64,000 bases of DNA from Eledone cirrhosa (lineage: Eukaryota). A program made the position numbers and the translations under genes. The stretch spans positions 19,034,001-19,098,000 of the forward strand of contig OZ024760.1 in NCBI GenBank assembly GCA_964016885.1. The letters are read 5' to 3'. This document shows, piece by piece, positions 11,356 through 47,745 of the stretch. Every line of letters begins with the position of its first letter. Within the stretch, counting starts at the first letter, position 1. The notes beneath the pieces were generated by a model. That model saw only the letters and a list, made by a program, of their open reading frames with translations, was not told where the DNA came from and did not search any database.

Positions 11356-11555
11356 NNNNNNNNNNNNNNNNNNNNNNNNNNNNNNNNNNNNNNNNNNNNN
11401 NNNNNNNNNNNNNNNNNNNNNNNNNNNNNNNNNNNNNNNNNNNNNNNNNNNNNNNNNNNNNNNNNNNNNNNNNNNNNNNNNNNNNNNNNNNNNNNNNNNN
11501 NNNNNNNNNNNNNNNNNNNNNNNNNNNNNNNNNNNNNNNNNNNNNNNNNNNNNNN
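11356..11555. other. Assembly gap (200 N)
   Basis: Run of n. Confidence 1.
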
Positions 11556-13846
11556 TACTTCCCTTGCTTTTATCGAGAATCTAATTGTAATACGTGACGT
11601 ATTCTATTCTATAGCGATTAGGTCTTCAAAATGTTTATTATAAACATACAGAATATTTTCGAATATTCTATGTCTATATTCACATATATATCGCTATTTC
11701 AAAGCATTTATTCCAATTTCTAATTTCTGCCGGACCGGCAACCGCTCTTTCAAACCAGTTCCTGTACACATCTAAGTATTCTATAAGTCTCTAGCTGTGT
11801 CATTCTCGATAAAAGCACTGGATATGTAGTCCTGATGATTTCTAACAAGAATGAAACGCGTAGATTACTTCCCTTGCTTTTATCGAGAATCTAATTGTAA
11901 TACGTGACGTATTCTATTCTATAGCGATTAGGTCTTCAAAATGTTTATTATAAACATACAGAATATTTTCGAATATTCTATGTCTATATTCACATATATA
12001 TCGCTATTTCAGAGCATTTATTCCAATTTCTAATTTCTGCCGGACCGGCAACCGCTCTTTCAAACCAGTTCCTGTACACATCTAAGTATTCTATAAGTCT
12101 CTAGCTGTGTCATTCTCGATAAAAGCACTGGATATGTAGTCCTGATGATTTCTAACAAGAATGAAACGCGTAGATTACTTCCCTTGCTTTTATCGAGAAT
12201 CTAATTGTAATACGTGACGTATTCTATTCTATAGCGATTAGGTCTTCAAAATGTTTATTATAAACATACAGAATATTTTCGAATATTCTATGTCTATATT
12301 CACATATATATCGCTATTTCAAAGCATTTATTCCAATTTCTAATTTCTGCCGGACCGGCAACCGCTCTTTCAAACCAGTTCCTGTACACATCTAAGTATT
12401 CTATAAGTCTCTAGCTGTGTCATTCTCGATAAAAGCACTGGATATGTAGTCCTGATGATTTCTAACAAGAATGAAACGCGTAGATTACTTCCCTTGCTTT
12501 TATCGAGAATCTAATTGTAATACGTGACGTATTCTATTCTATAGCGATTAGGTCTTCAAAATGTTTATTATAAACATACAGAATATTTTCGAATATTCTA
12601 TGTCTATATTCACATATATATCGCTATTTCAGAGCATTTATTCCAATTTCTAATTTCTGCCGGACCGGCAACCGCTCTTTCAAACCAGTTCCTGTACACA
12701 TCTAAGTATTCTATAAGTCTCTAGCTGTGTCATTCTCGATAAAAGCACTGGATATGTAGTCCTGATGATTTCTAACAAGAATGAAACGCGTAGATTACTT
12801 CCCTTGCTTTTATCGAGAATCTAATTGTAATACGTGACGTATTCTATTCTATAGCGATTAGGTCTTCAAAATGTTTATTATAAACATACAGAATATTTTC
12901 GAATATTCTATGTCTATATTCACATATATATCGCTATTTCAGAGCATTTATTCCAATTTCTAATTTCTGCCGGACCGGCAACCGCTCTTTCAAACCAGTT
13001 CCTGTACACATCTAAGTATTCTATAAGTCTCTAGCTGTGTCATTCTCGATAAAAGCACTGGATATGTAGTCCTGATGATTTCTAACAAGAATGAAACGCG
13101 TAGATTACTTCCCTTGCTTTTATCGAGAATCTAATTGTAATACGTGACGTATTCTATTCTATAGCGATTAGGTCTTCAAAATGTTTATTATAAACATACA
13201 GAATATTTTCGAATATTCTATGTCTATATTCACATATATATCGCTATTTCAAAGCATTTATTCCAATTTCTAATTTCTGCCGGACCGGCAACCGCTCTTT
13301 CAAACCAGTTCCTGTACACATCTAAGTATTCTATAAGTCTCTAGCTGTGTCATTCTCGATAAAAGCACTGGATATGTAGTCCTGATGATTTCTAACAAGA
13401 ATGAAACGCGTAGATTACTTCCCTTGCTTTTATCGAGAATCTAATTGTAATACGTGACGTATTCTATTCTATAGCGATTAGGTCTTCAAAATGTTTATTA
13501 TAAACATACAGAATATTTTCGAATATTCTATGTCTATATTCACATATATATCGCTATTTCAGAGCATTTATTCCAATTTCTAATTTCTGCCGGACCGGCA
13601 ACCGCTCTTTCAAACCAGTTCCTGTACACATCTAAGTATTCTATAAGTCTCTAGCTGTGTCATTCTCGATAAAAGCACTGGATATGTAGTCCTGATGATT
13701 TCTAACAAGAATGAAACGCGTAGATTACTTCCCTTGCTTTTATCGAGAATCTAATTGTAATACGTGACGTATTCTATTCTATAGCGATTAGGTCTTCAAA
13801 ATGTTTATTATAAACATACAGAATATTTTCGAATATTCTATGTCTA
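11556..13846 (+). mobile_element. 310-bp tandem array with one hammerhead ribozyme per unit (non-LTR retrozyme-like)
   Basis: CCCTTGCTTT recurs at 11561, 11871, 12181, 12491, 12801, 13111, 13421 and 13731; each unit contains GTAGTC-CTGATGA-TTTCTAACAAGAAT-GAAA-CGCG-TA-GATTAC. Confidence 0.9.
11826..11868 (+). ncRNA. Minimal type I hammerhead ribozyme (first of 7; others at 12136, 12446, 12756, 13066, 13376, 13686)
   Basis: Stem I GTAGTC/GATTAC, core CUGAUGA and GAAA, short stem II TTC/GAA, palindromic stem III CGCG, cleavage triplet GUA (after 11862). Confidence 0.88.
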
Positions 13847-17168
<3,322 letters not shown>

Positions 17169-17382
17169 TCGTTTCTGAATTTGTTTAGCAAGATTCTTTA
17201 TCTGAAATCGTGTGTTGAAACCGATATTGTTATACCTTGGGAGGGTCATGTTGCCAATAAGAAACACACGCACCAGTTGCTTTCACTTCAATTTAATTTA
17301 ATATATATTTATAAATTTACAAATTTATAAATTTCTGGTTGGTTGGTTGGTTCCACAACCAGATAGTTGTTTATATATATAT

Positions 17383-17427
17383 AGTCATACTTCTTTCGTC
17401 ACACACTCTGTGACCTCTTCAGTGACT
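17383..17427 (-). ncRNA. Mirror-image hammerhead ribozyme (family A, left arm)
   Basis: Reverse complement reads AGTCA-CTGAAGA-GGTCACAGAGTGTGTGAC-GAAA-GAAG-TA-TGACT, with one change in stem III. Confidence 0.7.
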
Positions 17428-17548
17428 GGGGATTTCTTTCTTCGTTTCTGTGCCTTTCCTTTCTTCTATCCTACGCCATTTTGTTTGTCAAACAAAATGG
17501 CGTAGGATAGAAGAAAGGAAAGGCACAGAAACGAAGAAAGAAATCCCC

Positions 17549-17593
17549 AGTCACTGAAGAGGTCACAGAGTGTGTGACGAAAGAACTATGACT
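17549..17593 (+). ncRNA. Minimal type I hammerhead ribozyme (family A)
   Basis: AGTCA-CTGAAGA-G-GTCACA(GAGTG)TGTGAC-GAAA-GAAC-TA-TGACT. Confidence 0.8.
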
Positions 17594-17758
17594 ATATATA
17601 TATAAACAACTATCTGGTTGTGGAACCAACCAACCAACCAGAAATTTATAAATTTGTAAATTTATAAATATATATTAAATTAAATTGAAGTGAAAGCAAC
17701 TGGTGCGTGTGTTTCTTATTGGCAACATGACCCTCCCAAGGTATAACAATATATAAAT

Positions 17759-46474: not shown

Positions 46475-47745
46475 TTAGGAGGGATGTCGGGACAAATTCC
46501 CCAAACACTCCTCCCAACGGGTTCTCTAAGAAGCAACCGTCTGGAACTAATCCGGCTGGATTTCTAAGCGAGATCAGCCGAGATCATGGATCTTGTCCAA
46601 CCATCTTGCTCGGGGATTACCCCTGGATGCTCTACAGGCTAGTTTTGCCCGTAAACTCTGTCCAGGGATTATTTCCTGAGGCATTCTATCCACATGCTCA
46701 TAGTATCGGATTTGTGATCTCCCGATTCGGAGAAGTAGAATCTCAACCTAGTGCGATTTTCTCTGATCTCTAAGCTCCACACTCTATCGAGTGTGACGTT
46801 ACTCGAGAGACCCAATGTCTACCTCTGGCCCTCCTGCCAATTGGCTTTTACCCGTAAAATCTTTCCTGAGACATTTTAACCATATGTTTGTAGTATCGGA
46901 GCTGTGATCTCTGAATTCAGAGATTCTTTCCTGAGACACTCTAACCACATGTCCATAGTATCGGAGCTGTGATCTCTCAATTTAGAGAAGGACCAGCTCT
47001 ACCTGGCATGACTCCTGTGATTCTTTCCTGAGACATTCTAACCACATGTCTATAGTATCGGAGCTGTGATCTCTCAATTCAGAGATTCTTTCCTGAGACA
47101 TTCTAACCACATGTCTGTAGTATCAGAGCTGTGATCTCTCAATTCAGAGATTCTTTCCTGAAACATTCTAACCACATGTCTGTAGTATCAGAGCTGTGAT
47201 CTCTCAATTCAGAGATTGTTTCCTGAAACATTCTAACCACATGTCTATAGTATCGGAGCTGTGATCTCTCAATTCAGAGATTCTTTCCTGAGACATTCTA
47301 ACCACATGCCCATAGTATTGGAGCTGTGATCTCTCAATTCAGAGATTCTTTCCTGAGACATTCTAACCACATGTCTATAGTATCGGAGCTGTGATCTCTC
47401 AATTCAGAGATTCTTTCCTGAAACATTCTAACCACATGTCTATAGTATCGGAGCTGTGATCTCTCAATTCAGAGATTCTTTCCTGAAACATTCTAACCCC
47501 ATGTCTATAGTATCGGGGCTGTGATCTCTCAATTCAGAGATTCTTTCCTGAGACATTCTAAGCACAAGTCTGTAGTATCAGAGCTGTGATCTCTCAATTC
47601 AGAGATTCTTTCCTGAGACATTCTAAGCACATGTCTATAGTATCAGAGCTGTGATCTCTGAATTCGGAGAAATAGCAGCTCTACTCGAAGTGACCTTATG
47701 GACTCCAAGCTACACACTCTTTCATGTAACGTTACTTTAAACGTC
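46475..47745 (-). mobile_element. Decayed RTE-like LINE 3' end containing a 65-bp internal tandem array
   Basis: Minus-strand translation IRRSQIRYYEHVDRMPQE...SRGNPRARWLDKIHDL...RWEECL; the 65-bp unit encodes IERSQLRYYRHVVRMSQER. Confidence 0.78.
47020..47670. repeat. 65-bp minisatellite, ~10 units plus 2 upstream
   Basis: ACCACATG at 47041, 47106, 47171, 47236, 47301 and onward. Confidence 0.92.

Follow-up and report, generated by a model that had tools for sequence, protein, structure and literature searches.

The window analysed here – a 64,000-nucleotide stretch of the Eledone cirrhosa genome – holds a tandem array of a retrozyme-like element in which each hammerhead motif is enclosed by a long inverted repeat. 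The question raised by this arrangement is whether the enclosing helix is a functional RNA structure and, if so, what it does for the RNA. Few natural circular RNAs are as abundant as those of animal retrozymes, and the steps by which their ends are delivered to a ligase, their circles survive their own ribozyme and their sequence is rewritten into DNA have been proposed rather than shown.

The repeat unit and its predicted fold

The array extends from 11556 to about 13849 on the forward strand, as delimited by tandem-repeat and arm positions, and comprises 7.4 units with a period of 310 bp, measured from the recurring pair of arms (seven left and eight right). On the left it abuts an assembly gap of 200 N (11356–11555); on the right, near 13849, it stops at a short insertion end, followed by (TA)n. 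The unit is non-coding, has a GC content of about 34% and carries one type I hammerhead, all within the range of non-LTR retrozymes (170–400 bp, GC below 50%). The element is dispersed over many loci, with 14,359 hammerhead cores of one pattern genome-wide (the reversed control gave no matches), 15,731 exact copies of the 16-bp clamp and 1,254 long insertion ends of one form. Contigs from four of the six sequencing runs differed from two of the units by a few single letters and nothing more. On these features the element is a young non-LTR retrozyme of a known kind, in line with PMC7229834, whose sections on coral, mussel and axolotl retrozymes likewise describe tandem units of 170–400 nt with low GC and one type I hammerhead each. 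Those elements were shown to be expressed and to form circles, whereas the Eledone family is known here from DNA alone.

The type I signature (CUGANGA ... GAAA ... UH, with three stems and an open stem I) lies at 11826–11868 (+). The 5′ strand of proximal stem I (11826–11831), predicted by the fold and seen to covary, forms 6 bp including one G·U and leads into the core C3–A9 (11832–11838), recognised by its letters and by covariation of C3–G8. Stem II, with a basal U·U pair and a 6-nt loop II (11839–11852), is backed by covariation and by comparison with the Rfam HH9 model, and its U10.1–U11.1 variant is already known (PMC3088659; PMC7229834); passages of PMC3088659 report both the U·U and the U3–A8 core variants as active in other hammerheads. 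Positions 11853–11862 hold the GAAA core, a palindromic stem III (11856–11861), for which pairing in a dimer is predicted, and the GUA triplet; cleavage is predicted directly 3′ of 11862. At the gathering score Rfam returned no hammerhead in the window and only one tRNA-like match; the best match was Hammerhead_HH9, whose cut-off is 52 bits and which the unit matched with 19.2 (E = 0.026), and a copy from the sister family D scored 18.6 bits against the Rfam hammerhead model. The putative ribozyme is thus identified by its core letters and by covariation, not by Rfam. A tRNA-like sequence on the reverse strand at 27731–27802, with several broken pairs, is probably the head of a SINE.

The outer helix of stem I, here called the clamp, joins a 5′ arm at 11802–11817 (+) to a 3′ arm at 11875–11890 (+). 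As the preliminary description had it, the arms are exact reverse complements over 16 bp, and they are so in every full 310-bp unit. The pair probability is 0.97–1.0 in 14 of the 16 pairs, and when the unit was shuffled 1000 times with its dinucleotides preserved, no perfect inverted repeat longer than 13 bp arose. As a circle the unit has a folding energy of −61.1 kcal/mol, compared with −46.3 ± 4.8 in the shuffles, and falls to −40.8 kcal/mol when the arms are forced open, so that the clamp supplies most of its excess stability. In the cut linear monomer, the predicted fold pairs the clamp within one molecule at a probability near 1.

Between stem I and the clamp lies the 8×6 internal loop that had been described, but the predicted fold places a 3-bp GGA/UCC helix inside it, and the fully open form was rejected. 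Stem I is accordingly laid out as 6 bp, a 3×1 loop, 3 bp, a 2×2 loop and the 16-bp helix. Its 5′ side at 11818–11825 comprises the 2×2 loop, the GGA strand and a 3-nt loop strand that is the predicted dock for loop II; its 3′ strands at 11863–11874 comprise the 6 bp, a 1-nt loop, UCC and the 2×2 loop. A loop-opening U, 6 bp from the core, and the loop II sequence YAAnnA recur across families, as in canonical type I hammerheads. A contact between loops I and II is plausible, with the small 3×1 loop, not the whole 8×6 stretch, as its candidate partner.

Elsewhere in the unit, the hairpin AGAATATT-TTCG-AATATTCT is exact, with 8 bp at 11960–11979 (+), just upstream of the short insertion end. The GCCGG-A-CCGGC element at 12038–12050 (+) also folds, but its stem has 5 bp and its loop is GAC instead of the single nucleotide first suggested, which is unable to close the stem. 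A small hairpin directly 3′ of the clamp (11899–11913, +) is predicted by the fold, and the alignment puts a hairpin of other sequence at the same place in sister families.

Compensatory change in the outer helix

Within the window's own family (family A), variation is too sparse for compensatory pairs, and sister families were required. These were seen in the flanks of the fetched loci, where the body of the unit is 72–81% identical and the hammerhead region differs. From 94 distinct extracted segments, 40 rows were picked to span about six sister families and aligned by sequence alone; 15 clamp pairs were scored, the outermost being left out. Nine of the 15 have changed on both sides. Paired cells make up 91.5% of 598, compared with 80.5% in shuffles and 37–58% when the arms are slid against each other, although two of five whole-structure measures did not rise above the shuffles (both-side-change pairs, 343/500; further pair types, 499/500). 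The rows are related, so the compensatory events number about a dozen rather than 93. RNAalifold predicts the same helix unprompted.

Pairwise comparisons are more direct. Families A and C differ at eight of the 15 clamp pairs, and all eight are Watson–Crick in both; families A and D differ at six, of which four are compensatory, one is G·U and one is a mismatch. Covariation extends to stems I and II and to C3–G8 in the core, which reads U3–A8 in 13 of the 40 rows. The hairpins at 11960–11979 and 12038–12050 are kept; in a set of 13 rows, three of their 13 pairs show changes on both sides, two of these in the first hairpin, and the innermost pair of the second is broken in five of the rows. 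While the clamp sequence turns over between families, its length and its A/U-rich outer end are maintained. The search for covariation among genomic copies that the preliminary description had called for thus found it, and the outcome that was to refute the idea, a helix not conserved in other copies, did not occur: compensatory changes have maintained it in the sister families.

Could such symmetry arise with no RNA function, as a mutational by-product in which a reverse transcriptase or the DNA repair machinery switches templates and makes one arm a copy of its partner? Such switches, with short microhomology, are frequent at the central junctions of insertions, and a few partial copies start at a clamp arm. 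Copying of this kind, however, yields Watson–Crick pairs only, and on both strands alike, whereas the inherited changes here are strand-specific G·U pairs: on the strand considered, clamp cells show 27 G·U and five A·C. Nor would it explain why the non-palindromic core pair C3–G8 and stems I and II covary too. This reading is largely refuted, and we give it very little credence.

The same direction is seen among variants inside the young family A, where changes carried by every unit of an array (array-wide) were set against those confined to a single unit (76 of 85 loci, with at least three units each). In the clamp, all three array-wide variants are G·U, compared with 12 of 13 single-unit variants that break a pair (Fisher p = 0.007). 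When all helices are pooled with the core, 6/6 array-wide and 3/26 single-unit changes leave the structure intact (p = 9e-5), and core changes, of which there are five among the single-unit variants, are absent from the 34 array-wide ones. A>G accounts for 10 of 34 array-wide and 9 of 120 single-unit changes (p = 0.002), an excess that a structured RNA intermediate in the copying would lead one to expect; among array-wide changes only, the A>G to T>C ratio of 10 to 5 is not significant (p = 0.12). A-to-I editing within the helix could produce the excess, as could a tolerance of G·U. Editing and selection for G·U are indistinguishable from these data, and each presupposes that RNA of this strand forms the helix.

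Taken with the covariation across sister families, these array-wide variants that stay paired bear out the view that the unit is a structured RNA rather than a plain satellite, and we consider it very probable that the 16-bp helix is a functional RNA structure. The covariation tells us that the clamp matters; its purpose is not thereby shown.

Extended stems I are not a new class, judging from accounts of newt and cave-cricket satellites. The 'stem 0' of Dolichopoda pDo500 (PMC2837043) and newt satellite 2 (as reviewed in PMC6155905) likewise have a looped stem I extension, compensatory stem changes and a debate over single versus double hammerheads. The pDo500 extension totals 19 nt, compared with about 50 nt, including the 16-bp perfect helix, in Eledone, and the passages on these two satellites draw no tie to circle formation (PMC2837043, PMC6155905). 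The main text of PMC7229834 is silent on a long outer stem I helix, inverted arms or fixed ends, although its figures may draw such helices. In the literature searched – with thin coverage of subscription papers, and with older newt and Schistosoma work seen through reviews – we found no covariation of a long outer helix, no register-swap argument and no two-armed retrozyme arrays.

Further hammerheads occur in the fetched loci. Sister families C, G and H (L085:7107-7604, L128, L134, L124, L147) have the U3–A8 core variant throughout, and in family C stem III is a full palindrome of 12 nt, a further sign of dimer folding. Unrelated hammerhead repeats with long looped stem I extensions and palindromic stem III lie in L076 near 1381, in L090 near 2230 and 2697, and in L093, one of them with a unit of about 466 bp. 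A clamp may, on such sequences, be general in the Eledone genome.

Pairing register and the role of the clamp

Stem III of the window's unit has only 1–2 bp and a pair probability of 0.0 in the folded monomer. Where helix III is short and palindromic, type I hammerheads of metazoans mostly act as dimers, according to passages of PMC4209133 and PMC7229834; the latter reports for axolotl retrozymes that both forms cleave better as dimers and that monomers are circularised by RtcB. A dimer fold exchanges the strands of stem I; the clamp arms are therefore exchanged with them, and the middle monomer becomes paired with itself. This bears directly on the earlier proposal that the clamp holds cleaved ends together for ligation. 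The holding of ends remains a fair inference – the clamp is predicted to strengthen the hold between cut products from −8.7 to −32.0 kcal/mol – but the register drawn for it, the local one, ties the end of monomer n to the start of monomer n+1. Re-ligation in that register restores the multimer, and circles need the swapped one.

Which register is favoured depends on temperature. For a two-hammerhead stretch at 37 °C, the unconstrained minimum is a double hammerhead whose middle monomer is self-clamped (−104.0 kcal/mol), compared with −103.9 kcal/mol for an inactive local fold and −90.5 for two single active hammerheads; the local register wins by about 3 kcal/mol at 25 °C and 5 kcal/mol at 15 °C. 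In an energy model that leaves out tertiary contacts and folding kinetics, the swapped register takes 0.42 of the ensemble of the window's variant at 37 °C, 0.05 at 25 °C and 0.01 at 18 °C. Seven of eight dimers were scorable in this way. Two other family-A dimers reach 0.90 and 0.46 at 25 °C and a family-D dimer 0.02–0.09; in the family-A variant L073 neither register forms. Folding during transcription would be expected to favour the local hairpin, and loop–loop contacts can activate single hammerheads, as discussed in part of PMC6155905.

We think it somewhat better than an even chance that the clamp, as the outer extension of stem I, is a ligation stem that holds the monomer's own cut ends. 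Arrays would be transcribed into multimers, in which stem III is predicted to be too weak alone, so that neighbouring hammerheads would pair through its palindrome. The resulting double-hammerhead fold would swap the clamp partners, and the middle monomer would be excised with its own 5′ and 3′ arms paired. Its 5′-OH and cyclic-phosphate ends could then be sealed by a host ligase such as RtcB, as results in PMC7229834 suggest: in the animal retrozymes tested so far, self-ligation reaches 1–3%, compared with 30 to more than 80% with RtcB, and by analogy RtcB is more likely to be the sealer than the ribozyme. In the monomer circle, a hammerhead with no partner would be expected to cut poorly, and nicks would be clamped by about 25 bp and could be resealed.

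A comparable helix has been engineered. In the synthetic Tornado system for circular RNA, built on twister ribozymes, a helix reportedly holds 5′-OH and cyclic-phosphate ends for sealing by a tRNA ligase. In the viroid ELVd the ends made by its ribozyme are likewise sealed by a ligase, and there, as passages of PMC5895719 describe for E. coli, structure near the site is largely dispensable, changes next to it causing no loss of ligase circularisation unless the ribozyme is affected, which counsels caution about a ligation stem. The Eledone family offers a natural series of compensatory mutants of an end-holding helix, together with a prediction of dimer-only cutting and partner swapping, and a natural ligation stem would be useful for the production of circular RNA.

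The helix might instead be a folding scaffold only, which by closing stem I lets the internal loop dock with loop II and allows a single hammerhead to cleave, with no special part in ligation. The conserved letters of loops I and II across families and the preference for the local register at lower temperature speak for it. We hold it to be unlikely, however: a few pairs beyond the loop suffice for such a contact (the Rfam HH9 model has five), whereas the best-kept and best-covarying clamp pairs are the outer 11, distant from the loop. The innermost four are looser, and the pair second from the internal loop is unpaired in 19 of the 40 rows.

A less probable alternative still is that the helix serves as a handle or shield, a putative binding site for a host protein specific to double-strand RNA or for a Penelope-like protein, or a protection of the cut ends from exonucleases. 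Its constant length and A/U-rich outer end under sequence turnover would suit such a role, and in vitro the PAc hammerhead required its protein for cleavage (PMC11167929, in the part that deals with it); the insertion ends and the best-conserved sequence, however, lie elsewhere, about 100–140 nt downstream.

Insertion footprints and Penelope-like elements

How the array came to be in the genome bears on what its RNA looked like. Along one chromosome, 15 family-A loci taken in order comprise 12 with both orientations, two with one arm and one cut by a gap. A second sample was taken by the long insertion end (unit positions 165–167): 60 of the first 100 listed among the 1,254 were followed, seven of which extend past the fetched stretch. 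Among the 53 complete insertions, 49 have two back-to-back arms and four have one; in all 49 two-armed cases the long end stands opposite a short end, at about unit positions 126–139, which is blurred by TA microhomology. Both arms carry a common haplotype at 54 of 60 loci, compared with 336 of 3540 cross-locus pairs. Shared haplotypes, inverted arms and fixed ends together favour an array written at insertion from one template over one grown locally. The window's copy shows the short end only; it may have lost its inverted arm in the gap at 11356–11555. The many matches that end at query base 50 mark the cut-off of the search, not ends of the element.

It is here that a further reading can be weighed, in which the helix acts as a brake: paired in the local register it would keep cut neighbours together and favour their re-joining, and surviving multimers would template the tandem arrays, with circles as a side product. 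The window's variant prefers the local register at 25 °C and below, and the main substrate of PAc is uncut RNA, according to part of PMC11167929. Polymorphism common to several but not all units exists in ten of 54 long arrays, including the window's own, and one array carries an insert repeated at an eight-unit period. This insert, an unrelated 773-bp element located exactly where the 5′ clamp arm begins (L033:4424-5196), recurs identically eight units further on (L033:1170-1942), either by way of a multimeric template or through later DNA duplication. Against the brake, the other 44 of the 54 arrays of at least four units hold no shared polymorphism, and 81 loci carry 41 haplotypes, many of them private and fixed in all units of both arms. 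Uniform arrays and private fixed haplotypes suggest passage through one single unit, the kind of bottleneck that a monomer circle would impose; we judge the brake improbable, and the insertion template was probably a monomer circle. One insertion, L222, departs from this one-template pattern by combining two haplotypes, in 15 and in 3 units.

The footprint resembles that of Penelope-like elements, for which parts of PMC11167929 and PMC8557442 describe the cutting and extension of both target strands, two internal starts, a tail of 30–40 nt at one end, an inverted 5′-truncated copy and (TA)n targets; the inverted copies, the tail at one end and the (TA)n targets are found in the Eledone insertions. 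The stretch at 11988–12030 (+), between the two fixed insertion ends (unit about 126–139 and 165–168), would on this comparison (PMC11167929) correspond to the Penelope-type tail and to a pair of reverse-transcription start sites. A Penelope-like protein would nick both strands of a (TA)n target and copy one RNA template from two start points about 30–35 nt apart on it, giving two back-to-back arrays, and thousands of insertion footprints fit the mechanism worked out for Penelope in vitro. Two things set the Eledone insertions apart from Penelope-like elements: the unit has no ORF, and each arm is a rolling array that can reach about 19 units.

An origin of vertebrate retrozymes from Penelope-like elements, shared with pLTR hammerheads, is proposed in the covered parts of bioRxiv 10.64898/2026.07.22.740005, and a parallel exists in Eledone, where a Penelope-like family with a GIY-YIG domain has the retrozyme's U·U stem II and GUA triplet. 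That preprint suggests local growth of arrays from a terminal repeat, whereas the Eledone arms argue for an array made at insertion; the same parts make no mention of head-to-head arrangement, tail or stem I. The family in question, family B, has 11,707 cores, with GIY-YIG in one of four scanned ORFs, and a tail of its own of about 60 nt. As the partner of the retrozyme it was rejected, because only the 28-nt hammerhead core matches and the tail differs. Of 150 listed GIY-YIG loci, 30 were inspected for a Penelope-like element with the same tail, and none of them has one; a single locus among these 30 contains an independent family-D insertion.

Joined with the self-clamped monomer, this footprint suggests a wider scheme, which we put forward tentatively as possible but short of probable, and in which the clamp would be a register switch. 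Only the double hammerhead would cut, releasing a monomer already closed on itself; the lone hammerhead of the circle would stay silent and nicks would remain clamped; and a dimer of the Penelope-like protein would roll two reverse transcriptases round the same circle to leave two back-to-back arrays. If true, such a switch would answer a question raised in PMC7229834, namely why retrozyme circles escape linearisation by their own ribozyme.

Several other insertions and repeats were seen alongside. In the window, a short back-to-back family B insertion at 30420–30545 represents the terminus of a Penelope-like element that has ORF pieces of GIY-YIG and RT-like type, and at 17300–17720 a back-to-back insertion lies in the long (TA)n tract adjoining the array, with a minimal Penelope-type hammerhead that has no stem III in each arm. 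Downstream of GIY-YIG, L234-L261 hold a Penelope-like family with a terminal U3–A8 hammerhead, a palindromic stem III and the GUA triplet. Finally, the window contains at 46860–47670 a 65-bp tandem repeat in ten copies with 95% identity, with diverged copies upstream.
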